A stretch of 37,373 bases of DNA from Chloroflexota bacterium (GTDB lineage Bacteria > Chloroflexota > Dehalococcoidia > E44-bin15), in contig JAYEHL010000184.1 in the NCBI GenBank assembly GCA_034659515.1, positions 1 to 37,373 on the forward strand. The letters are read 5' to 3'. Under the pieces are notes generated by a model. The model was not told the DNA's origin, searched no databases, and saw only the letters and a list, made by a program, of their open reading frames with translations. Both the position numbers and the translations under genes were made by a program. Positions 17,538 to 34,139 of this stretch are shown here, one piece after another; the stretch's first letter is position 1; each line of letters begins with the position of its first letter.

Positions 17538-19238
17538 CTATTTCGGGAGGAGTATGTCGCGCAATTTTTCGACAACGCCTTCGAGGGGCATGATCGTCGA
17601 TTCCTTCTCGTGCCGCAGCTTAACCTCGACGCTCGTGTTCTTGAGCGTTCTCGGGCTGACTACAACTCTTATGGGCATTCCCAGCAGGTCGGCGTCGTTG
17701 AGCTTGACGCCGGGTGACTCGACTCGATCATCGTACAGGACATCGATTCCGGCGGCGGAGAGATCGGCGTATAGTTTATCGGCGGTCTCAATAACATCCT
17801 CGTTGTCGGTCGACAGCGGACAGAGGTATGCCTGGTAGGGGGCTATCGGCGCGGGCCAGATAATGCCCTTCTCATCGTTGTTTTGCTCTATGGCGGCGGC
17901 CAGCAGCCTGCCGATGCCGATGCCGTAGCAGCCCATGATGACGGGGTGGGATGCGCCCTCGCGGTCGAGGAAGTTGGCCCCCATGCGCTCGCTGAAGAAG
18001 GTGCCCAGCTTGAACACGTGCCCCACTTCGATGCCCTTGACGGCATTCAGCGTTGCGCCGCATTTCGGGCAGCCCTCGCCCGCCCTGGCGGTGGCGATGT
18101 CGATCAACAGGTCGACCTCGAAGTCGCGCGGGTAGTTTACGTTCTTTACGTGTGCACCGGCCTTGTTGGCTCCGGCGACGAAGTTGGCTCCCATCGTTAT
18201 CGATTGATCGGCGACGCGTTTTATGCCCTGCAGCCCTATCGGCGAGGCGTATCCGGCCACCAGACCGGTGGCGGCGACCTCCTCCCCGGTGGCAAGACGC
18301 AGCTCGTGGCAGCCGATGGCGTTCTTCAACTTGACCTCGTTGACCTCTATGTCGCCGCGTATGGATACGTATATGACTGCGCCGTCGCAGGAGTATAACA
18401 CCGCCTTGAGTGTCTTGCCCGGCGGTACGGAGAGGAAGTTCGCCACCTCCTCGATGGTTTTCATCCCCGGCGTGGCTATCTCCTCCATCGGCAGCGGTTC
18501 ACTCGAGTCGTTCTTATGCTTGACGCTCTCCGCCCGCTCGACGTTGGCGGTGTAGTTGCAGGAAGGGCAGTTGATGATAACATCCTCGCCGCTGTCGGCG
18601 ACGACCATGAACTCGTGGGATTCCTTGCCGCCGATAGCGCCGCTGTCGGCCTCGGCGATGAGGAATTGCAGGCCGCAGCGCTCGTATATCCGTTTGTACG
18701 CTTCGATCACTTTGCTATAAGTCGAGTTGAGCGATTCGGCGTCGGCGTCGAAGCTGTACATGTCCTTCATGCCGAATTCGCGCACGCGCAGCAGTCCCCC
18801 TCTAGGGCGAGGCTCGTCGCGGAACTTGGTCTGTATCTGATACAGCATAAGCGGCAGGTCGCGGTAGCTTTGTACGTTGTGCCTCACCAAATCGGTGATG
18901 ATCTCCTCGTGCGTTGGGCCCAGCACCAGCGTGCGCTCGCGACGGTCGTTCAGCGTGAACATCGTCTTGCCGAAGGCGAGGTTGCGCTCGGTATCGACCC
19001 ACATCTCGTAGGGCTGGAGCACCGGCATTTGCAGCTCCTGCGCTCCGATGGCGTTAAGCTCATCGCGCATGATGTTCTCGATCTTTTGGATGGCTCGCAG
19101 GCACACCGGCATGTAGCTGTACACGCCCGATGCCAGCTGCTGGATCATGCCGGCCTTGAGCAGGAGCTGGTGGCTGATGTTCTCCGCCTCCGCCGGTGTT
19201 TGCCTGAGCGTCTTGCCGAATAACTGCGATACTTTCAT
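17538..19238 (-). CDS. proS: proline--tRNA ligase (bacterial type with INS editing domain)
   Basis: Class II motifs (RPRGGLLRVREFGMKDMYSF; GCYGIGIGRL), a central insertion domain and a C-terminal anticodon-binding domain. 566 aa. Confidence 0.95.
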   Translation of the reverse strand: MKVSQLFGKTLRQTPAEAENISHQLLLKAGMIQQLASGVYSYMPVCLRAIQKIENIMRDELNAIGAQELQMPVLQPYEMWVDTERNLAFGKTMFTLNDRRERTLVLGPTHEEIITDLVRHNVQSYRDLPLMLYQIQTKFRDEPRPRGGLLRVREFGMKDMYSFDADAESLNSTYSKVIEAYKRIYERCGLQFLIAEADSGAIGGKESHEFMVVADSGEDVIINCPSCNYTANVERAESVKHKNDSSEPLPMEEIATPGMKTIEEVANFLSVPPGKTLKAVLYSCDGAVIYVSIRGDIEVNEVKLKNAIGCHELRLATGEEVAATGLVAGYASPIGLQGIKRVADQSITMGANFVAGANKAGAHVKNVNYPRDFEVDLLIDIATARAGEGCPKCGATLNAVKGIEVGHVFKLGTFFSERMGANFLDREGASHPVIMGCYGIGIGRLLAAAIEQNNDEKGIIWPAPIAPYQAYLCPLSTDNEDVIETADKLYADLSAAGIDVLYDDRVESPGVKLNDADLLGMPIRVVVSPRTLKNTSVEVKLRHEKESTIMPLEGVVEKLRDILLPK

Positions 19239-19250
19239 TGTCCGGTCCTT

Positions 19251-19409
19251 CTACTTTTCGTCCGTGCCGATTTCCCGTTTTGCGGGCAGTGTCGTTGGAA
19301 TGTTGTAGATGATGATCGCGATCAGCACGACGAGCGCGCCGATGGGCAGCGCCGCCAGCGCTATTATTATTTTAATGAGGCTGAGCGGTAATTTAAACAG
19401 GGTTTTCAT
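19251..19409 (-). CDS. hypothetical 52-aa single-pass membrane peptide
   Basis: Hand translation gives MKTLFKLPLSLIKIIIALAALPIGALVVLIAIIIYNIPTTLPAKREIGTDEK. The stop lies 12 nt upstream of the proS ATG. No clear SD. Below the ORF-track cutoff. Confidence 0.35.
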   Translation of the reverse strand: MKTLFKLPLSLIKIIIALAALPIGALVVLIAIIIYNIPTTLPAKREIGTDEK

Positions 19410-19487
19410 CATAAGTCAACTGCTATTTAGATTATATACTATCTTATTATGTTTCTGATCAATGTTACAGAGATTATACACTTGTCT

Positions 19488-20321
19488 CTATGAAAAATAA
19501 CGTTTAGATATTCCAGTTTTTCTTTCGCCGAGGCTTAGCTCGGCAACTGCATCATCAATTGCTCTCAAAATCTTTATTATCGTATTACATAGGTATGTTA
19601 GCTCAGAAACATCTGCTTTCTTTGAAGATTCGTCCTTTGGTTTGTAGCCATGCCTGTACATTTCCATTTTGGCCATGCAACGGCCCAATGCGTGTTGGAA
19701 ATGATTAAAAATGCGAATGACTGGTCTCAAGTCATCCAATGTGCCTTGATGATATAACATTTCTCTTGACATATTTTGAGTAAATTGATCTATGCCAAAT
19801 ATCGAAGGGTAAAAAGAGAACACGTCGAATTTATCTATATCGATTAAATCTAATCTAAGCGCTTCATTTTTCAGAATGTTTAGAAATTCATCAAAGTTAT
19901 CGTGTGTCTTGCAGATTCTAAAAAAGAGGGCTTCTCGTGTAGGGTTTGGTTGCTTAAAGTAGTTCGCAAAATCAAGAGCGATGGCTTGTATTAAAAATGT
20001 GAGTTGAAATGACATTTCATCAAGGATTTCTTTTTGAATGTCTCTTCGGCGTTCTCTCTCCTTGCGGTCTCTTTCGCGCCTATAGCGGTCGACGAAGAAA
20101 TAGGCAATACCGAGGGTTAAAAACGCGCCAATAATGGATGCGACAAGGCTTTCTTTAAAAGTATTACTCAAATATACACTGGGTAGCACTAATAGTAATA
20201 TGGATGCGACGACAAATGAAATGAATAAAAGAACCCCTTTCTTATCTTTAGGAGTTTTATCTCCTGAGACCTTGCAAACTCTTTGAATAATGGTTTTTTT
20301 CTTTTGTGGTTTTTCTGCCAT
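19488..20321 (-). CDS. hypothetical protein: N-terminal 2-TM hairpin, R/E-rich linker, helical domain of unknown family
   Basis: ATG 20321 with AAGGTGG upstream. TM1 is LLFISFVVASILLLVLPSVYL and TM2 is LVASIIGAFLTLGIAYFFV, followed by RYRRERDRKERERRRD. The gene is strongly AT-rich compared with its neighbours. Confidence 0.6.
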   Translation of the reverse strand: MAEKPQKKKTIIQRVCKVSGDKTPKDKKGVLLFISFVVASILLLVLPSVYLSNTFKESLVASIIGAFLTLGIAYFFVDRYRRERDRKERERRRDIQKEILDEMSFQLTFLIQAIALDFANYFKQPNPTREALFFRICKTHDNFDEFLNILKNEALRLDLIDIDKFDVFSFYPSIFGIDQFTQNMSREMLYHQGTLDDLRPVIRIFNHFQHALGRCMAKMEMYRHGYKPKDESSKKADVSELTYLCNTIIKILRAIDDAVAELSLGERKTGISKRYFS

Positions 20322-20395
20322 CAGCCACCTTTATAGCTTTGCATAACTCTGGGCCGTCCGGTAAAGCCGGATGATGACGTTGGGTCAATTCGCTG

Positions 20396-20600
20396 TAATC
20401 CCCCTTAGTCCCCCTTTGAGAAAGGGGGATTTTAAGGTTCTCTTCGTAGGGGCGTCTGATCGGCCAACTAGCCTGAATAGGGTGAGACGAATCTCGCCTC
20501 TACATCTCAACGTCCCTTGCGGCTTCGGCGCTTCCCCCTCTTTGCCAAAGAGGGGGTTAGGGGGAGTTCGATAACCCGTCATCGCCCGGATTGATCGGGC
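20396..20600. repeat. mosaic hairpin repeat, composite copy A (module 1 at 20396-20439, module 2 at 20531-20570, module 3 at 20580-20600)
   Basis: Module 1 is TAATCCCCCTTAGTCCCCCTTTGaGAAAGGGGGA-TTTTAAGGTT. Module 2 is CTTCCCCCTCTTTGcCAAAGAGGGGGTTAGGGGGAGTTCG, an 11-bp perfect stem. Module 3 is CATCGCCCGgATTGATCGGGC. All three recur at 24019-24241. Confidence 0.85.
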
Positions 20601-20608
20601 GCTCCGGT

Positions 20609-21193
20609 TCATAACCGCTTGCGCTGCTTCACAACCTGCTGCCAGAACTCGTGCTCGGTATCGAGCATCCGTTCAATGTAACTGTCGTCTCGCGCTACGC
20701 TGATATGAACCTCCGGGAGGTTCGGCAGATAGCACCAGAACTCGATTACTTGCAGCTCGGTAACGGCCAGGATGTGCTGCAGCTGACCGAAGTAATACTT
20801 CGGCACTTTTTTAGTAGCCGAAGATTTGCGATACACGCTCTCCCCGCACTTGATCTCCACCACCGCGCTTCCGTCGGTCGCCAATCCGTCTACGCTGGCC
20901 CGCAGCCATTCATACTTTGTGCTTTGCAGGCAGGCGGCTGCCACACGAACGCCGAACTTGCTCTCGTAACGTTTTCGCGCCTCCGGCTCAAGCCTGGTGC
21001 CGCGAGCCATAGCGGCGTTGGGGCCGTACACTTTCCCCTCGCACTTCTCTTGCAGCAGATAGTTCGCGCTCTTCCAGGGGTTCTCGCCCATGATCGCAGG
21101 GGCGTCGGATGCGCCTATGCCCTGGCTGCGCCATTCGAGCCAGGCGGGCGTGCCTTGCCGGAGGTTTACGATTGTGTAAGGTGTGTTATTCAT
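20609..21193 (-). CDS. YqaJ-like viral-recombinase-type exonuclease (PD-(D/E)XK)
   Basis: GTPAWLEWRSQGIGASDAPAIMG, GTRLEPEARKRYE and SVDGL....VVEIKC match the YqaJ / lambda-exonuclease-like layout. 194 aa. Confidence 0.75.
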   Translation of the reverse strand: MNNTPYTIVNLRQGTPAWLEWRSQGIGASDAPAIMGENPWKSANYLLQEKCEGKVYGPNAAMARGTRLEPEARKRYESKFGVRVAAACLQSTKYEWLRASVDGLATDGSAVVEIKCGESVYRKSSATKKVPKYYFGQLQHILAVTELQVIEFWCYLPNLPEVHISVARDDSYIERMLDTEHEFWQQVVKQRKRL

Positions 21194-21220
21194 GTCGTTT
21201 TTCTAGCCTACCATAATCGC

Positions 21221-21272
21221 CATCGCCCGACGAATTGATCGGGCAATCCAGGGGGCGGCTTTCAAAGCCGCC
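21221..21272. repeat. hairpin repeat, module 3 plus ATCCAG-hairpin module
   Basis: CATCGCCCGACGAATTGATCGGGCAATCCAGGGGGCGGCTTTCAAAGCCGCC. It shares CATCGCCCGA..TTGATCGGGC(AATCCAG) with 20580-20600 and 24193-24241, and ends in a 9-bp hairpin GGCGGCTTT/AAAGCCGCC. Confidence 0.8.
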
Positions 21273-21299
21273 GCGGTTTTAAAACTCAGGTTCATCCTC

Positions 21300-23477
21300 T
21301 TATCCCTGTTCGCTCAGGACATGGTTGACCTCGTAATTCTTCGTTACGATAAAATTCGCTTCACTCTTCGATTTTTGGATAATACGATGTTCTATCTCCA
21401 ATACTTTCAGGATGAATTGAAAGTCTTGACCAGGGTCGCGGTTGAAGTTTCTTTCTTTTATTTCATTTATTCTGCTTTGGTAATCCGATTCCAAAAAGAT
21501 TTTCAAAGACGCATTTTTCAAAAGCATGCTATAGGTAAGATCGACAAAGACGATTTCCGTGGTCGTGAGGTCGACTGGCACATTTTCATACTTTTTCGAT
21601 TCTAATCGCCTGCAGTCGGAGGGAATAAAGACTTCCCGAGTTTCCTTTTTTATAGCGCGATCCAGAATCAAATCTAGTTGTTCTAGATTTATCTCTGAAG
21701 GCCCCAGGCATTGGCTAAGTTTGTTCTCACCGTAAGCTTTAAGTCGCTTCTTGTGGTTCTCTGCCGGTGTCAGCTTAAAAAATACATCTCCTGCTATCGT
21801 TGTCCCCCAAAAATTTTGCCTTCTCAACAGATACCGCAGATATTCCGCGATTTCGGTCTTACCCACCCCTGACTCGCCTCCGAGAGCAGCTATGACCCGC
21901 TCTTTTCTATATCGTGCCTTCTTGATTTCTTCAACGATGTACGGAAGCAGCTCCTCCGCCGCTTTTTTATGGCGTGGTTTTATGTGGGGGGGATCTCCTC
22001 GCCAGGTAAAAGTCGATCGATGGTAGGATCGGTGAATCCTTCTTCCAGAAATGGATTCCATTGTTCCGTGAGGAGATTTTCCTTGGCAAAGTAAATCTAC
22101 GATTTCTCCCTGTTTATGTCCTATAGCTTCCCAGTTAAATTCACTTCGGGCTAGCCTATAACCATCTGACGCCAGTTGATTCAGTCGTGTCTTACGGTTC
22201 AATATCATGATCAGCCTTTGCGCGGCGTTGTGAGGATCGTTCGGATCCACAACAATCGCCTCTTTCTCATCGGTGATCCATCTTGTAACGCCCGCGGCTT
22301 TTGAGACCATGACCGGTGCGCGAGCCGCCATTGCCTCCACCACACCCATGCCGAAAGGTTCCATCATTTGCATTCCGATGTAGAACAGACAGTGATGAAC
22401 GAGAACGGCTAAAATCTCCCAGGGTTGACTGGGCAGCCTTACCACCTCATTTTCCGATAATTCGTAATCTTTCATTACTGCAATAATATTGTTTTCGATA
22501 TTGATTTCTTCAAGCGGTGGCTTTTCTTGAGATCCTCCCACAAGAACAAGTTTAAGCCCTTTCATAAGCTGAGGAGCCAGCCGACATGCTTCGCCGAAGA
22601 CCTTCACGACTCCGGGAACATTCTTTGCCTCTGAGAAACGACCGAAATAAATAAAATATTTTCGGGGTGTCAGATTGTATCTATTCAATAAATCCGTTCG
22701 AGGATTTTTGTGTGCGTTAAAAAAATCATTTCCCGCGCCGGCAGGCATGACGAGATGCGGGAATTCACGTTTATAGTATTCTTTCAAAATAGCAGGTTCT
22801 TGCCATGAGTTCGCTATTTCAAAATTTGCTCCTTTGAGAGCCGCCATTTCAAAGCTTTCTCTTGTTCCAAAATTATACTCTTCGCCGAGCCATGTTTCAG
22901 GGTCGTAGGGGTCATATCCGAGAGATATCACTTTATTGATACCAAGCGAATGTGGAATTGCGATAGTTGGTATTTGAAGCCTTTCGCCTATTTCAAGAGC
23001 TATAGTCATACCGTCCGCATAGTGACCTACAACCGCATGTGCGCCAAAGAGAGCTGAAACGGCGACGGCCTTTTCCGCCAGCTCCGGAACAAGAGGGTAT
23101 ATCTCTTCCTTACGTACGAATTCATCGCTACCTGCAGGGATGCGTACAAGCCATAGGTTTTTTGCAAAGGATTCTACGATTGGGTATGGTTTGAACCATC
23201 TCGCTAAAATGATCACCTTTCTTCCCTGCGAGGCCCATGTTCTCGCTACTTCCAGCACATAATACGTTTGCCCCCCCGTATCAGGCACTCCGGCAGGCGG
23301 CGGGTTGTCCCAGTAACCATGCGTGGAGACCATCACGATGCGATTTGCACGTTTGGGAATTCTTTTTCTCAAGAAGGTAGGAATGCGGTATTTTTGAAAG
23401 GTATCATAATATTCTTGCAGGAGATTTGGTGCCAGGTCATATTTTAAAGCCTGATTTTTAAGTTTTTGATCGCTCAA
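21300..23477 (-). CDS. fusion protein: sucrose-phosphate-synthase-like GT4 glycosyltransferase (about aa 45-465) plus uridine-kinase/PRK-like P-loop domain (about aa 505-725)
   Basis: N-terminus: VSTHGYWDNPPPAGVPDTGGQTYYVLEVARTWA (the DTGGQ box of the SPS/SuSy clade) and EPFGMGVVEAMAA (GT-B C-lobe). C-terminus: Walker A GGESGVGKT (nt 21855-21881), GDVFFK, VFVDLTYSML and FLESDYQSRINEIKERN, collinear with Udk as I recall it. The TTG start at 23477 is uncertain; the next Met is aa 49. Confidence 0.8.
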   Translation of the reverse strand: MSDQKLKNQALKYDLAPNLLQEYYDTFQKYRIPTFLRKRIPKRANRIVMVSTHGYWDNPPPAGVPDTGGQTYYVLEVARTWASQGRKVIILARWFKPYPIVESFAKNLWLVRIPAGSDEFVRKEEIYPLVPELAEKAVAVSALFGAHAVVGHYADGMTIALEIGERLQIPTIAIPHSLGINKVISLGYDPYDPETWLGEEYNFGTRESFEMAALKGANFEIANSWQEPAILKEYYKREFPHLVMPAGAGNDFFNAHKNPRTDLLNRYNLTPRKYFIYFGRFSEAKNVPGVVKVFGEACRLAPQLMKGLKLVLVGGSQEKPPLEEINIENNIIAVMKDYELSENEVVRLPSQPWEILAVLVHHCLFYIGMQMMEPFGMGVVEAMAARAPVMVSKAAGVTRWITDEKEAIVVDPNDPHNAAQRLIMILNRKTRLNQLASDGYRLARSEFNWEAIGHKQGEIVDLLCQGKSPHGTMESISGRRIHRSYHRSTFTWRGDPPHIKPRHKKAAEELLPYIVEEIKKARYRKERVIAALGGESGVGKTEIAEYLRYLLRRQNFWGTTIAGDVFFKLTPAENHKKRLKAYGENKLSQCLGPSEINLEQLDLILDRAIKKETREVFIPSDCRRLESKKYENVPVDLTTTEIVFVDLTYSMLLKNASLKIFLESDYQSRINEIKERNFNRDPGQDFQFILKVLEIEHRIIQKSKSEANFIVTKNYEVNHVLSEQG

Positions 23478-23728: not shown

Positions 23729-23983
23729 CTAAAATCTGAAGTGAACGAAAATCCTTCCGAAATTCTTGTCGTCTTTCTCCAGCCGATGGTATTGTTTCTT
23801 TATCTCCGGCTTCATTAGAAATCGCAAAACATGCTTTTTCAATTGTCCGCTTCCCTTGCCGGGAATAATCTCCACTAAGGCGATCTTCTTTTCCACCGCC
23901 TCCGCGATAACCCTGTTTAGCTCCGCGTCGATGGCGAGACCCCTGTTATAGATATCGTGCAGGTCCAGTTTGATTTTTGCCAT
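23729..23983 (-). CDS. small Smr-domain protein
   Basis: 84 aa: KLDLHD...A...L...I.......ALVEIIPGKGSGQLKKHVLRFL follows the Smr pattern (LDLHG ... IIHGKGSG.L). Here HD replaces HG and IPGKG replaces IHGKG. AAGGA lies 8 nt upstream of the ATG. Confidence 0.65.
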   Translation of the reverse strand: MAKIKLDLHDIYNRGLAIDAELNRVIAEAVEKKIALVEIIPGKGSGQLKKHVLRFLMKPEIKKQYHRLEKDDKNFGRIFVHFRF

Positions 23984-24018: not shown

Positions 24019-24241
24019 TAATCCCCCTTAGTCCCCCTTTGCGAAAGGGGGAGTTTTAAGGTTAGGGGACACCCCTAAAACCCCGGTCCTTCCAATTCTG
24101 GAAGGACACCGCTGCTTCAACGCCCCCTGTCCTTCCGCGGAAGGACTTCCCCCTCTTTGTCAAAGAGGGGGTTAGGGGGAGTTCGTGTTCCTCATTGCCC
24201 GACTTGATCAGGCAATCCAGAGGGCGAATTGCAATTCGCTC
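24019..24241. repeat. mosaic hairpin repeat, composite copy B (module 1 at 24019-24063, module 2 at 24146-24185, module 3 plus ATCCAG-hairpin at 24193-24241)
   Basis: Same orientation as copy A. Module 1 differs by 1 substitution and 1 indel; module 2 matches at 39/40. The centre is unrelated and carries its own hairpins: GTCCTTCCA-attc-TGGAAGGAC (24086-24107) and the palindrome GTCCTTCCGCGGAAGGAC (24129-24146). Confidence 0.85.
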
Positions 24242-24244
24242 TTA

Positions 24245-24643
24245 CTAAAGCGAATCCAGGTGTATTTCCGGGTCTTCTTCTACTTCCGCGTACCACGGCT
24301 CGGGGTCTATGTCCTGAAGCGCGGTGGCGGCCGCTCGCCGCACCAGCGTGTCGTTGTCATCGAGCGCCTCGGTGAGCGCGGGGATCGCCGCCTCGACGAT
24401 ATCTTTGTGGCTGATCCCGATCTTGCCGATGGCGCCCGCGGCTGCGGAGCGCGTCATCGAATCCCAGTGCTTGAGCGCATCGATAAGGGCCGGGATCGCC
24501 CCGGCGGCGTCGGGGCCGAGTTTTGATAGTGCATTGGCGGCTGCGTAGCGTAGCGAGTTGTTCTTGCTTTTTAGCGCCCCGGTAAGGCCCTCGATGTTCC
24601 GGCTGGCGGCTAGTTCGCCGATATTCGTTTTGAGTTTGCTCAT
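24245..24643 (-). CDS. small HEAT-repeat (PBS-lyase-type) protein
   Basis: 132 aa with three or four repeats of the R..AA.ALG.IG...A...L...L.D type (LRYAAANALSKLGPDAAGAIPALIDAL; TRSAAAGAIGKIG; LVRRAAATALQDI). Confidence 0.7.
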   Translation of the reverse strand: MSKLKTNIGELAASRNIEGLTGALKSKNNSLRYAAANALSKLGPDAAGAIPALIDALKHWDSMTRSAAAGAIGKIGISHKDIVEAAIPALTEALDDNDTLVRRAAATALQDIDPEPWYAEVEEDPEIHLDSL

Positions 24644-24682
24644 GTTATTGCCGTTCTTTCAGTATGTGAGTATTCTCAGTCG

Positions 24683-24710
24683 ATCCAGAGGGCGAATCGC
24701 AATTCGCCCC
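24683..24710. repeat. ATCCAG-hairpin module, solo copy
   Basis: ATCCAGAGGGCGAATCGCAATTCGCCCC. Compare AATCCAGAGGGCGAATTGCAATTCGC at 24214-24239 and AATCCAGGGGGCGGC... at 21245. Lies between the HEAT gene start and the ispG stop. Confidence 0.75.
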
Positions 24711-24719
24711 TACCTCTAT

Positions 24720-25766
24720 TTAAAATTTCTCGACCTCCGCCATCAGCGCGTCGAGGAAATCGGGCTCGTCGACTATCCGCACCTGTTTACCGTTGCGGAA
24801 GAGAATGCCTTTTCCCTTTCCGCAGGCGATGCCTACATCGGCATGTTTCGCTTCTCCAGGACCGTTGACCACGCAGCCCATCACTGCTACTCTGAGCGGC
24901 TTTTCCACCCGCGCCATGCGTCTTTCCACAGCGTTTGCGAGGGATATAATATCGACCTCGACTCGTCCGCACGTGGGACAGCTCACCAGCGTCGGGCCGT
25001 GCCGGCTGAGATCGAGCGACTTCAGTATCTCGTATCCGGCGGTCACCTCCTCGCGGGGGTCGCCGGTCAGCGATACGCGTATCGTGTCGCCGATGCCCTC
25101 CCACAGCAGGATGCCGATGCCGACGGCGCTGCGGATAGCGCCGCGTTTGGGCGTGCCCGCCTCGGTGATGCCGATGTGGATGGGGTAGGGCATGCGCTTC
25201 GCCAGCAATCGATTGGCCTCGATGGTATCGAGCACGTCGAACGCCTTGAGCGAGACTTTAATCAGATCGAAGTCGAGGCTCTCCAGCAGGTCGATCTCGC
25301 CCATCGCGGCGTCCACCATGCGCTCGACGGTCGTCTTCGTCGCATCGCTTGCCGGTGGCAGGCTCCCCGCGTTGACGCCGATGCGTATCGGTATGTCGCG
25401 CTCCTTCGCTGCCAGCACGACGCGCTTGATATGGGCGGGGTCGGATATGTTCCCCGGGTTTAGCCGCAGCCCGTCGGCGCCAGCATCGATCGATTGGAGG
25501 GCGAGGCGATGGTCGAAATGTATATCGGCGATGAGGGGAATGTTTATCGCCTTCCTGATCGCCGACAGCGCATCGGCGGCCTCGGTATCGGGCACGGCTA
25601 CGCGCACCAGCTGGCAGCCGCATCGCTCGAGTTTTTTTATCTGCCGGATCGTCGCCTTCGAATCGCGTGTATCCGTCTTGGCCATCGACTGGACTATGAT
25701 CGGCGCGCCGCCACCGACGGTGACATCGCCGATGTGTATAGGTCGGGAGTTGCGGCGACGGATCAT
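24720..25766 (-). CDS. ispG: 4-hydroxy-3-methylbut-2-enyl diphosphate synthase (GcpE)
   Basis: The real start is the internal ATG 25766, an ATGA overlap with the rseP stop. MIRRRNSRPIHIGDVTVGGGAPIIVQSMAKTDT; cluster cysteines in SCPTCGR and GCVVNGPGE. Confidence 0.95.
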   Translation of the reverse strand: MIRRRNSRPIHIGDVTVGGGAPIIVQSMAKTDTRDSKATIRQIKKLERCGCQLVRVAVPDTEAADALSAIRKAINIPLIADIHFDHRLALQSIDAGADGLRLNPGNISDPAHIKRVVLAAKERDIPIRIGVNAGSLPPASDATKTTVERMVDAAMGEIDLLESLDFDLIKVSLKAFDVLDTIEANRLLAKRMPYPIHIGITEAGTPKRGAIRSAVGIGILLWEGIGDTIRVSLTGDPREEVTAGYEILKSLDLSRHGPTLVSCPTCGRVEVDIISLANAVERRMARVEKPLRVAVMGCVVNGPGEAKHADVGIACGKGKGILFRNGKQVRIVDEPDFLDALMAEVEKF

Positions 25767-27100
25767 CTCAGGAAACCTTCCCCGCTGATTAGTCGTGCAA
25801 TATCGTTGTAGCTTATAACTACGAAAAGCATCATCAGAAGCGCGAATCCGACGAGGTGCACCATTCCTTCCTTTTTCGCCGATATCCGCTTCCCTTTGCG
25901 GATACATTCGAGAACAACGAAGACGAGTCTTCCTCCGTCCAGTGCCGGGACCGGCAGCAGGTTCATTATGCCCAGGATTATGCTGATGAGCGCTGCGAAC
26001 TCGAACAGCGCCGTCGCGCCGCCTATAGCGGTCACTTCATTTGTGAGCTGGGCGATGCCTATGGGTCCGGCGATGGCGTCCTTGGCCGGTACATCGCCGG
26101 AGAACAGCATGCCGAATGAATCCTTTATGCCCACGTAAATCGAGCCGCATTCGGCAAAACCCTTGGGTATGGCTTCCCAGGGGGGATACGCGATTTTTGC
26201 ATATGTACCGGGGGCGGATATAATACCCAGCGCTCCCTGTCCTTGAGGTATCTCCTCTTTAGTTCTGGGAACGATAGTGACCTCTAATTGCGAGCCTTCC
26301 CGCGATATGAGGAGTGTGACCTCCTGCCCGGCCTTCGCTGCTGTAATTTCGTTCAATTCGCCGGGGGTATCCACCTGCTCGCCATCGACGGCAAGGATTA
26401 CATCGTTTACCTTTAGACTTGCATTGGCGGCCGGGGAGTCCTCGCTGACGTTGCCGATCATGAGGCCCATATTGTGCGCCACTATACCCAGCGGACTTTC
26501 TCCCTCCGGTATTTCACTCGCTGCGGGTACTACCGGAACATCGAATTGCGAGCCGTTGCGTGATACCAGCAACGTGATCTCCTGCCCGGCCTTCATGTCT
26601 ATGATTTTATTCAACTGGTCGGGGGTAAATACCTGCTCTCCGTCGACACTCACTATGATATCGTTTATTTCGAGTCCGGCTGCCGCGGCCGCTGATCCGT
26701 CGATCACATTCGTAATGCGGGGGGCGTCATCCACCGGACGGTCGAGCGGCAGCATGTAGGATAGCGGCAGGAGCCAGAGGGGGAACAGGAGCATAAATAC
26801 CGATCCGGCGCTGAGGACAATGAGCCTGACCTTGGGACTCTTGCTCGCCAGGCTGTCCGGCACGTCCGGGTCCTCCTCGCCAGCCATCTTGCAGAAGCCG
26901 CCCAGCGGTATCCAGTTGAGCGACCATATCGTGCCCCACTTCTCGAAATGAAGGTGGCGGATGCGCGGCGGCAGTCCGATGCCGAACTCCTCCACTTTTA
27001 TCTTGGCGAGCTTGGCCGTGATATAGTGTCCCGCCTCGTGTACAATGACAAGCACCGTGAGTATGGCGAGAAATATAACGATCGATATAAAGATACTCAT
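25763..27100 (-). CDS. rseP: RIP site-2 zinc metalloprotease RseP/RasP with two PDZ domains
   Basis: The real start is ATG 27100, an ATGA overlap with the dxr stop. HEAGHY in TM1, two tandem PDZ-like repeats (...LEINDIIVSVDGEQV... / ...LKVNDVILAVDGEQV...) and NLLPVPALDGG. Confidence 0.9.
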   Translation of the reverse strand: MSIFISIVIFLAILTVLVIVHEAGHYITAKLAKIKVEEFGIGLPPRIRHLHFEKWGTIWSLNWIPLGGFCKMAGEEDPDVPDSLASKSPKVRLIVLSAGSVFMLLFPLWLLPLSYMLPLDRPVDDAPRITNVIDGSAAAAAGLEINDIIVSVDGEQVFTPDQLNKIIDMKAGQEITLLVSRNGSQFDVPVVPAASEIPEGESPLGIVAHNMGLMIGNVSEDSPAANASLKVNDVILAVDGEQVDTPGELNEITAAKAGQEVTLLISREGSQLEVTIVPRTKEEIPQGQGALGIISAPGTYAKIAYPPWEAIPKGFAECGSIYVGIKDSFGMLFSGDVPAKDAIAGPIGIAQLTNEVTAIGGATALFEFAALISIILGIMNLLPVPALDGGRLVFVVLECIRKGKRISAKKEGMVHLVGFALLMMLFVVISYNDIARLISGEGFLR

Positions 27101-34047: not shown

Positions 34048-34139
34048 GGAGGGATCGCATAGTGGTCTAGTGCGGCCGCCTGCTAAGCGGTTACCCTGAG
34101 TGATCGGGGTCGAGGGTTCGAATCCCTCTCCCTCCGCCA
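34048..34139 (+). tRNA. tRNA-Ser(GCU), class II with long variable arm, CCA encoded
   Basis: Hand fold. Acceptor GGAGGGA/TCCCTCC. Anticodon stem GCCGC/GCGGT with loop CU-GCU-AA. A 19-nt variable region (TACCCTGAGTGATCGGGGT). T arm GAGGG-TTCGAAT-CCCTC. Discriminator G, then CCA. Confidence 0.9.

Follow-up and report, generated by a model that had tools for sequence, protein, structure and literature searches.

A conserved fusion of a sucrose-phosphate-synthase-like glycosyltransferase to a P-loop kinase, encoded in a Chloroflexota genome

Two intact halves in one protein

The 37,373-nucleotide stretch of a Chloroflexota genome analysed here (contig JAYEHL010000184.1, hereafter the window) carries on its minus strand, at 21300..23477, a gene for a 725-amino-acid (aa) protein. 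Its N-terminal half is a glycosyltransferase (GT) of family GT4 resembling sucrose-phosphate synthase (SPS), and its C-terminal half is a P-loop domain of the phosphoribulokinase/uridine kinase (PRK/UK) type; we call it the GT-kinase. The reading frame is intact, running from a TTG start at 23477, with a purine-rich, Shine-Dalgarno-like AGGGGA about 8 nt 5' of it, to a stop codon at 21300-21302. An NCBI entry from a Chloroflexota metagenome-assembled genome (MAG), titled 'MAG: glycosyltransferase', is the identical protein (P0001), and the closest homologue (P0002) has the same N-terminus, MSDQKLK. The fusion was first proposed from the sequence alone. All motifs quoted in that original prediction were found in the translation, four of them re-translated from coordinates: S51-THGYW ... 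D66-TGGQTYYVLEVA, PHSLGINK (aa 175-182) and E373-PFGMGVVEAMA in the GT half; RRIHRSYHRSTFTWRGDPPHIKPRHKK (aa 479-505) in the connector; and GGESGVGKT (aa 533-541), GDVFFK (aa 563-568), VFVDLTYSML (aa 643-652) and FLESDYQSRINEIKERN (aa 661-677) in the kinase half. Pfam, NCBIfam, hhalign and an AlphaFold2 model searched with Foldseek all support a genuine, intact fusion.

A search covering 5.8 billion proteins returned more than 100 full-length homologues (~700-750 aa, 43-78% identity, 93-100% length coverage) from Thermodesulfobacteriota/Syntrophales, Kofleriaceae and other myxobacteria, Actinomycetota, Bdellovibrionota and alphaproteobacterial MAGs. Because these are independent and come from different assemblies and phyla, an assembly artefact or a split gene, against which the prediction had advised a check, was ruled out. 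The architecture, which had been called unusual, is indeed rare, occurring in 44 of 185,579 GTDB species (one genome per species), among which Vitiosangium sp. GDMCC 1.1324 is the sole cultured isolate. It is nevertheless a well-conserved family, with active-site motifs intact in both halves, and one form of a much commoner two-gene module of kinase and GT, described below. Names on the homologues are generic ('glycosyltransferase', 'uridine kinase'), and many at JGI read 'mannosylfructose-phosphate synthase'. A full-text literature search of incomplete coverage found no paper on an SPS-like GT fused to or paired with a PRK/UK-type kinase, in line with the prediction that no enzyme of this architecture had been characterised, and none pairing invertase with uridine kinase.

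The GT-B domain of the GT half (aa 45-465; 22083..23345, minus strand) belongs to the SPS/sucrose synthase (SuSy)/MshA branch of GT4 according to Pfam, NCBIfam, sequence matches in the PDB and Foldseek. Pfam reported Glycos_transf_1 (2.5e-18, aa 271-439) and GT-B_Sucrose_synth, the sucrose-synthase-type first GT-B domain (1.7e-10), and no HAD or S6PP domain, as expected from the earlier reading that the fusion lacks a phosphatase domain like that of sucrose-phosphate phosphatase (SPP). The best NCBIfam match was the SPS glycosyltransferase-domain model (sucr_P_syn_N, 3.3e-32); the plant-type SPS model TIGR02468 scored 49 bits against a cut-off of 1144. By sequence, the nearest solved structures were T. 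elongatus SPS (TeSPS, 6kih; 6e-24), H. orenii SPS (2r60), sucrose synthases and MshA. The full-length AlphaFold2 model, built on 34 homologues (alignment A1), had a mean pLDDT of 92 and a pTM of 0.91. It shows the two Rossmann lobes of a GT-B fold, and its leading Foldseek matches were 2r60, Arabidopsis SUS1 (3s29), 6kih, Nitrosomonas SuSy (4rbn), MshA (3c48), BshA and GlgM, with E values of 5e-23 to 5e-18 for the set 2r60, 3s29, 6kih, 4rbn, 3c48 and 6d9t. Ahead of this domain lies an N-terminal extension (aa 1-44; 23346..23477, minus strand), delimited by A1 and the model, with a conserved L..EY..LF..HGIP and two helices (residues 3-12 and 17-29, pLDDT 83-96).

We mapped the active site through an alignment to 6kih (SEQRES numbering is native + 3), taking residue roles in TeSPS from PMC7264703: His158 is catalytic, Glu331 binds the glucose 3-OH, Glu339 binds the UDP ribose, Arg249 and Arg253 are ligands of the UDP phosphates, and Arg105 and Arg178 hold the 6-phosphate of sucrose-6-phosphate (S6P). 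His158 corresponds to H176, Glu331 to E373, Glu339 to E381 and Arg249 to R280; Arg253 falls on A284, with K285 next to it. The S6P-phosphate ligands Arg105 and Arg178 correspond to K123, directly preceded by R122, and to R206. All these mapped residues except A284 are invariant in A1, including K285 of the NDP-phosphate-binding GR....K. H176-SLGINK182 (22932..22952, minus strand) contains the catalytic His and the Ser and Lys of the SPS-type HSLG..K acceptor motif, as seen in the translation and in alignments to 6kih and 2r60; H176, S177 and K182 are invariant in A1 and A4. E373-PFGMGVV-E381 (22335..22361, minus strand), found in the translation and alignment, is the E-x7-E motif of GT4 and is likewise invariant in A1. 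The GT half thus retains both the basic residues and the HSLG..K with which SPS recognises an acceptor 6-phosphate. Since the TeSPS residues are invariant, the GT is predicted to be active and its acceptor to be phosphorylated; its mechanism appears to resemble that of SPS, but it falls outside the SPS equivalog.

The kinase core (aa 526-720; 21318..21902, minus strand), delimited by AlphaFold2, Foldseek and hhalign, is weakly recognised by sequence. Pfam PF00485 remained sub-threshold (aa 530-603, E=0.005, 17.1 bits against 22), although stand-alone relatives pass that threshold (31-53 bits) and the match is precomputed for homologues P0059, P0060, P0063 and P0065. The udk model TIGR00235 aligned end to end (aa 525-713 with positions 4-187 of 207; E=0.0017) at 18 bits against a cut-off of 220, and the uridine kinase model NF004018 gave 14.6 bits against 180. 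A PDB search with the sequence-only kinase profile matched over the P-loop region alone, so a comparison of folds was needed. With an AlphaFold2 model of aa 478-725 (26-sequence alignment; pLDDT 87, pTM 0.85), all 45 PDB matches at E<=1e-3 were PRK/UK-superfamily proteins. Human UCK2 and UCK1 came first (8.7e-9, TM 0.56-0.68), then the FrcK-type 'putative fructose transport system kinase' 3c8u (1e-7), followed by phosphoribulokinases (PRK), pantothenate kinases (PanK) and D-glycerate 3-kinases (GLYK), with kinase-like domains related to these also among the 45. Alignment with hhalign to E. coli Udk (from NC_000913.3) had a probability of 86.5% over 180 columns and paired GGESGVGKT with AGASASGKS, GDVFFK with EDCYYK, VDLTY with ILEG, and RN..RD with RRIKRD. 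Both comparisons bear out the kinase-type C-terminus that had been predicted.

The residues for phosphoryl transfer are in place. In the Walker A segment G533-GESGVGKT541 (21855..21881, minus strand), G534, E535, S536, G537, G539 and K540 are invariant in A1. D564 of G563-DVFFK568 (21774..21791, minus strand) aligns by hhalign with the catalytic Asp of Udk, and G563, D564, F566 and F567 are invariant. The lid segment R676-N-FN-R680-DPGQD685 (21423..21452, minus strand), aligned in the same way with RRIKRD of Udk, has N677, R680, D681, P682, Q684 and D685 invariant and R676 nearly so. The residues by which Udk selects a nucleoside are gone: the Asp of its YDHP motif is replaced by an invariant Gly (G592 in G-P-x-E595, by hhalign and MAFFT), DPxQDF stands at the position of the RGR lid, and the RGR arginines and base-recognition residues are absent. 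From UCK2 structures we take the YDHP Asp to be the ribose ligand, its Tyr and His the base readers, and RGR the lid. The parallel with Udk therefore stands for the fold and the phosphoryl-transfer motifs and falls for ribose and base binding, and the kinase half is predicted not to be a uridine kinase. Model and sequence together describe a PRK/UK-fold P-loop kinase that looks competent yet fails each uridine-kinase-specific test.

These results bear on a nucleotide-related role, in which the domain would be a uridine/cytidine kinase recycling the nucleoside, a Zeta-toxin-like kinase of NDP-sugars, or a non-catalytic nucleotide-binding regulator of the GT. UCK1 and UCK2 are the best structural matches, homologues are annotated 'uridine kinase' in their sources, and UCK is feedback-inhibited by UTP and CTP. 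PezT (2p5t) matched at E=0.004 over the P-loop region, profile positions 32-95 only, and PF06414 Zeta_toxin, unreported for the GT-kinase itself, is a weak P-loop-region match in some kinase relatives and appears in the precomputed Pfam lists of some homologues. Against this role stand the 18 bits on the udk equivalog, the invariant Gly in place of the ribose-binding Asp and the missing RGR lid; the partners of related kinases, described below, include hydrolases and a phosphorylase that use no nucleotide. The invariant catalytic Asp and Walker A argue against a pseudo-kinase, PADLOC gave no defence-system match, and the strong conservation across phyla resembles that of a metabolic enzyme. 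We consider a nucleotide-related role improbable, and nucleoside recycling, which the prediction had offered as one option, unlikely, because the YDHP Asp has become Gly and the RGR lid and base-recognition residues are absent.

The segment between the two domains had been described as a basic linker. This connector (aa 466-525; 21903..22082, minus strand) is instead a conserved part of the kinase module and includes its N-terminal helix, judging from invariant columns, the start of stand-alone kinases and AlphaFold2. R487, W492, R493, G494, D495 and P497 are invariant in 34 homologues, W492-RGD-x-P497 lying at nt 21987-22004, and stand-alone relatives begin with a segment of the same type, M-x-G-D...I...H..A. 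Residues 478-493 (the first 16 of the isolated-domain model) had a pLDDT below 50 there, and residues 471-500 reached 87-96 in the full-length model, whose pTM of 0.91 suggests a fixed arrangement of the GT and kinase domains.

Partner genes of the kinase clade and a proposed function

Among 1.84 billion cluster representatives, a search with a C-terminal-domain profile picked out 665 at E<=1e-3. The best 150 of these (1e-34 to 1e-20) were mostly stand-alone proteins of ~215 aa, which start exactly at the x-G-D segment and have ~30% identity to the kinase domain of the window. They share with that domain GESGSGKS, DDYFK.PP.TN...R, VG..EV.L, EGTY, R..R..RE and LEIEH, all absent from E. coli Udk. 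The signature we propose for the clade, which the window domain carries, comprises the x-G-D N-terminal helix, GESGxGK[ST], D.[FY]F..P..N..R, G..E[VI].L, R..R..R[ED] and LEIEH. In a rough neighbour-joining tree the whole clade sits on a long branch from Udk and kinases with different partners interleave; the GT-kinase family of the window forms its own subclade.

The kinase clade is linked to sucrose-type carbohydrate enzymes. At three loci (L008, L009, L010) the kinase lies directly upstream of, or overlaps, a 411-425-aa SPS-like GT4 on the same strand; a metagenome scan added four with an SPS-like GT4 directly adjacent on the same strand in either order (L058, L059, L061, L073) and one with a partial same-strand SPS-like GT4 750 bp upstream (L072). 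Together with two reverse-order fusions, kinase first and SPS-like GT4 second (P0174, P0247), this makes 8 loci and 2 fusions with GT4. Partners resembling glycoside hydrolase family GH100 occur at 2 loci (L067, L055) and in 7 fused representatives. A GH13_18 gene lies directly downstream at L063, which also has a TreS-like gene upstream, and passes the sucrose-phosphorylase equivalog cut-off (469.6 against 334.4 bits); the start of the same type of gene lies downstream at L062, for 2 loci in all. One kinase is fused to a TreC-like GH13 (P0180) and one has a GalT-like gene upstream (L065). Neighbours were unrelated at L064 and L066, and the remaining stand-alone-kinase loci were too short to judge. 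What SPS-like, invertase-like, sucrose-phosphorylase-like and TreC-like partners have in common is a free hexose on one side of the reaction and a hexose phosphate on the other. The window protein is the fused form of a widespread two-gene module of a putative P-loop sugar kinase and an SPS-like GT4.

Other arrangements were seen in the clade. At L056 a sodium:solute symporter gene (1-1017) ends 1 bp before a GH100-like-kinase fusion gene (1019-2884), which suggests a catabolic cassette that imports, hydrolyses and phosphorylates a glycoside. P0215 (686 aa) has a serine beta-lactamase-fold domain (8.5e-47) fused to a clade kinase and does not fit the pattern of sugar enzymes. In P0126, P0128 and P0133 (506-537 aa) the kinase occupies aa ~250-500 and follows a ~250-aa N-terminal region that has no Pfam match; only a ~50-residue stretch of that region matches the GT profile, and it may be a truncated or different partner domain.

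In the mechanism we favour, the C-terminal kinase would use ATP to phosphorylate a free small carbohydrate, most likely a hexose; because the partners are sucrose-type, fructose to fructose-6-phosphate fits best and is our preferred guess. The SPS-like, retaining GT4 would then link this sugar phosphate to a hexose taken from an NDP-sugar, giving a sucrose-6-phosphate-like disaccharide phosphate. With the two domains predicted to be packed rigidly through the W-R-G-D-x-P connector, direct hand-over of the intermediate is conceivable. Since the hydrolase and phosphorylase partners use neither nucleoside nor nucleotide, the substrate should be a sugar and not a nucleoside. That the kinase makes a phosphorylated acceptor, one of the roles first proposed for it, gains comparative support from the retained S6P-phosphate residues and from relatives that adjoin or are fused to SPS-like GT4s. 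We give the version in which the kinase phosphorylates a free hexose and the GT glycosylates that sugar phosphate an even chance; the broader claim that the product of the kinase is the acceptor of the GT, whatever its identity, is somewhat more likely. We infer from these comparisons the link between kinase product and GT acceptor, the identities of substrate, donor and product, and any channelling.

The same partners allow for a different order or regiochemistry. The acceptor could be a sugar-1-phosphate, as in GlgM (ADP-Glc + Glc-1-P to maltose-1-P), or the GT could come first and the kinase phosphorylate its disaccharide product, in the manner of a maltokinase or disaccharide kinase but with a P-loop fold. 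GlgM has the best target-normalised TM-score among the GT matches (0.82), PRK phosphorylates C1 of a ketose, the TreC-like GH13 fused to one kinase acts on a phospho-disaccharide, and other kinases sit between TreS-like and GH13_18 genes or beside a GalT-like hexose-1-P uridylyltransferase. On the other hand, the residues that hold the S6P 6-phosphate in TeSPS are retained at the same positions, and no GlgE-like gene is conserved near the fusion in the contexts examined or in the clustering of 44 loci. As sucrose phosphorylase already gives Glc-1-P, a kinase beside it would most simply take the released fructose. We judge this alternative unlikely, although it is the most credible of those weighed here.

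Slightly less credible is a glycerate version, in which a D-glycerate kinase and the GT4 together make a glycosyl-phosphoglycerate, the precursor of a compatible solute of the glucosyl- or mannosyl-glycerate type, and the GH100-like and GH13_18 partners are glucosylglycerate hydrolases and phosphorylases. GH13_18 does hold glucosylglycerate phosphorylases annotated as sucrose phosphorylase, GT4 enzymes with acidic acceptors are known (BshA, malate), one GH100-like fusion partner also matches an MGH1-like mannosylglycerate-hydrolase model (2.6e-6), and GLYK structures are among the Foldseek matches (7xpc 2.5e-6, 6ckg). Yet 7xpc ranks only 33rd, behind UCK, 3c8u, PRK and PanK, and the NCBIfam and PDB profile searches of the GT-kinase gave no sequence-level match to D-glycerate 3-kinase. 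The GH100-like domains match Anabaena InvA/InvB and Arabidopsis CINV1 at 1.6e-18, 2e-16 and 7e-13 (overall 1e-18 to 1e-13) and the structures of glucosyl- and mannosyl-glycerate hydrolases (GgH, MgH) at 0.01-0.5 only; the best GT matches are SPS and SuSy. Synthases of glucosyl- and mannosyl-3-phosphoglycerate are not known from GT4; those described are GT-A enzymes (GT81/GT55/GT78).

Around the fusion gene itself, no neighbour is common across clades, either in the contexts of P0038, P0112, P0048, P0086, P0014 and P0002 or in the clustering of neighbours at 44 genome loci. Neighbours are clade-specific only: a convergent MFS gene in Syntrophales, and, at six myxobacterial loci (L038, L042, L043, L045, L046, L047; Kofleriaceae, Archangium, Vitiosangium), a conserved cluster with haem-oxygenase-like, glyoxalase, acyl-AMP ligase and KAS III-like genes and a small ORF (open reading frame) resembling acyl carrier protein (ACP). 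In Vitiosangium (L003 5836-18477) this cluster adds a 716-aa GT4-phosphoesterase fusion, a ceramidase-like protein and two further GT4s. It may be a glycolipid or natural-product cluster, and a glycolipid or secondary-metabolite module, with a phosphorylated lipid head-group or metabolite as the acceptor, would fit its gene content as well as the Vitiosangium fusion and ceramidase-like gene. The cluster is restricted to one clade, though. In Syntrophales, Bdellovibrionota, Actinomycetota and the Chloroflexota window the GT-kinase gene is alone amid unrelated neighbours, and stand-alone kinase relatives partner with soluble-sugar enzymes; we rate this module the least probable of the alternatives. 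In a Bdellovibrionota MAG (L005 / L041 10106-16339), the orthologue P0086 is directly followed by a convergent gene for a 2,077-aa protein with a weak Glycos_transf_1 match only, and an SSF symporter gene lies upstream.

Several points weigh against the hexose model and the sugar-kinase reading of the clade. Central metabolism already supplies fructose-6-phosphate and glucose-6-phosphate in abundance, and it is not evident why a kinase dedicated to making either would be required. Glucosylglycerate-specific enzymes also occur in GH13_18 and among (alpha/alpha)6 hydrolases, and D-glycerate 3-kinase is another member of the PRK/UK superfamily. The GT half scored 111.9 bits on the SPS-domain model TIGR02472, far below the cut-off of 576, and for some GT partners of the clade the MshA model gives a score equal to that of the SPS model; the acceptor might therefore be something other than fructose-6-phosphate. 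No SPP-like phosphatase is fused (Pfam) or was seen among the neighbours in the window and related loci, which leaves the fate of the disaccharide phosphate unexplained. The neighbourhood evidence comes from ~20 loci, several of them related to one another, and for every member of the clade a sugar-kinase function is predicted by comparison. FrcK-type kinase 3c8u was considered as a functional anchor for fructokinase activity and set aside as unusable, its substrate being still undemonstrated (PMC10433430).

With these points in mind, we put forward tentatively that the clade is a new family of P-loop (PRK/UK-fold) hexose kinases for sucrose-type disaccharide metabolism, unrelated to the hexokinase/ROK, PfkB and GHMP sugar kinases. 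Its members might serve as fructose (or glucose) kinases for SPS-like synthases, GH100 invertase-like hydrolases and GH13_18 phosphorylases, and the window protein might be a self-contained disaccharide-phosphate synthase, possibly with active-site channelling and a new glycoside-phosphate product. If true, this would add a new fold class to the sugar kinases and define a route to sucrose-like disaccharide phosphates that is coupled to a kinase and independent of a phosphatase; it would span Thermodesulfobacteriota, Myxococcota, Chloroflexota and further lineages, most of them uncultured. Re-annotation would be due for thousands of 'uridine kinase' entries beside 'glycosyltransferase', 'invertase-like' and 'sucrose phosphorylase' genes, and metabolic models would then better describe how compatible solutes and sucrose are turned over in anaerobic sediments and bioreactors. 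A single polypeptide that makes a disaccharide phosphate from free hexose, ATP and NDP-sugar might also find use in biocatalysis.

The island in the window

The GT-kinase gene lies between proS (17538-19238) and ispG (24720-25907), within a conserved neighbourhood pyrH-frr-uppS-cdsA-dxr-rseP-ispG-proS in which names other than proS and ispG were assigned from order and size. An insert of ~5 kb carries, in minus-strand order, genes for a HEAT-repeat protein (24245-24643, 132 aa, GC ~0.61), an Smr-domain protein (23729-23983, 84 aa), the GT-kinase, a protein with a YqaJ-like viral-recombinase domain (20609-21193, 1.4e-30) and a 277-aa protein with no Pfam or PADLOC match (19488-20321). The prediction of an AT-rich accessory island held in part. 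The GT-kinase and smr genes have a GC content of 0.39-0.49, and the stretch 19300-20400, which includes the 277-aa gene, one of 0.36-0.43; proS and ispG on either side have 0.58-0.64, but that of the yqaJ-like gene (0.57-0.59) is host-like. Antisense ORFs of 91-195 aa at 21321-21605, 21751-22026 and 20651-21238 (all plus strand) overlap the GT-kinase and yqaJ-like genes; their translations are of low complexity, and they are most likely spurious.

Two copies of a ~200-bp direct repeat with two GC-rich hairpins (repeat families D2, D3 and D4; alignment A7), at 20396..20605 and 24019..24218, flank the yqaJ-like, GT-kinase and smr genes. The copies are 95-98% identical and contain the palindromes CCCCCTTTG.GAAAGGGGG and CCCCCTCTTTG.CAAAGAGGGGG. 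A hairpin of a third type, GGGCGAATTGCAATTCGCCC, is found repeatedly between genes of the island, including at 21231-21276 and 24676-24713. These repeats and hairpins resemble REP-like or terminator elements; alternatively, they resemble the trace left by an insertion or duplication.

The closest homologues of the GT-kinase are from Thermodesulfobacteriota, and the locus of the nearest, P0002 (78% identity), shows no synteny with the window, its neighbours being unrelated. Given the low GC of the island as well, horizontal acquisition is likely, and this Chloroflexota genome probably gained the gene in that way. Mis-binning was ruled out because the island and core genes are on one contig; the island may also have arisen through chimeric assembly. 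The sole tRNA gene in the window, tRNA-Ser (GCT) at 34048-34139 (plus strand), is far from the island, which is therefore not tRNA-associated. A role in anti-phage defence or as a toxin, considered in view of the low-GC island, the yqaJ-like neighbour and sub-threshold GT4-conflict and Zeta_toxin matches, was rejected: PADLOC gave nothing significant, and conservation is like that of a metabolic enzyme. We also found no relevance to phage DNA-hypermodification GTs and kinases in 10.1101/2025.06.16.659550.

Comparison with known systems

The closest characterised relatives of the GT half are SPS (EC 2.4.1.14; T. elongatus Tll1590/6kih, H. orenii 2r60) and MfpsA, which have the same GT4 GT-B fold, DTGGQ, HSLG..K and E-x7-E. 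SPS also shares the catalytic His and Glu, the NDP-phosphate Arg/Lys and both basic residues for the acceptor phosphate. Identity is 22-24% only, with 112 bits against the 576-bit cut-off, and the GT-kinase has the additional two-helix N-terminal extension. Where the GT-kinase has its P-loop kinase, many SPSs of cyanobacteria and plants have an SPP-like phosphatase domain, and no SPP gene lies near the GT-kinase gene.

The kinase half shares its fold with Udk/UCK2 and the wider PRK/UK superfamily (PRK, PanK, GLYK and FrcK-type 3c8u; Foldseek E 1e-8 to 1e-5, TM 0.5-0.68), and has in common with Udk the Walker A, the catalytic Asp after strand 2, a hydrophobic strand equivalent to Walker B and the R..R lid. 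It differs in that it falls under the Pfam PRK and NCBIfam udk cut-offs, has neither the RGR lid of Udk nor its residues for binding ribose and base, and bears the signatures of its clade: the x-G-D..I..H..A helix, GESGxGK[ST], P..N(H)..R, G..E[VI].L and LEIEH. The clade has sugar enzymes and not nucleotide-salvage genes as its genomic partners.

Nearest in composition are the two-gene module of a ~215-aa kinase and a ~410-425-aa SPS-like GT4 (L008-L010, L058, L059, L061) and the reverse fusions P0174 and P0247. They consist of the same domain families at ~30% identity in each half, with the same conserved active-site residues and no associated phosphatase. The reverse fusions and most two-gene operons are kinase-first, whereas the window fusion is GT-first; its family also forms a separate clade in the kinase tree and carries PSDCR...Y as an insertion in what is presumed to be the substrate region. 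TreS-Pep2, the trehalose synthase-maltokinase of the GlgE pathway, is a precedent for a disaccharide-handling enzyme fused to a sugar kinase, with the phospho-sugar passed on. Pep2 has an aminoglycoside-phosphotransferase/protein-kinase-like fold and a GH13 isomerase as its partner, in contrast to the P-loop fold and GT4 partner of the GT-kinase. What is new here is a predicted SPS-like disaccharide-phosphate synthase that carries a kinase module instead of a phosphatase, and the clade to which that module belongs may be a new family of sugar kinases.

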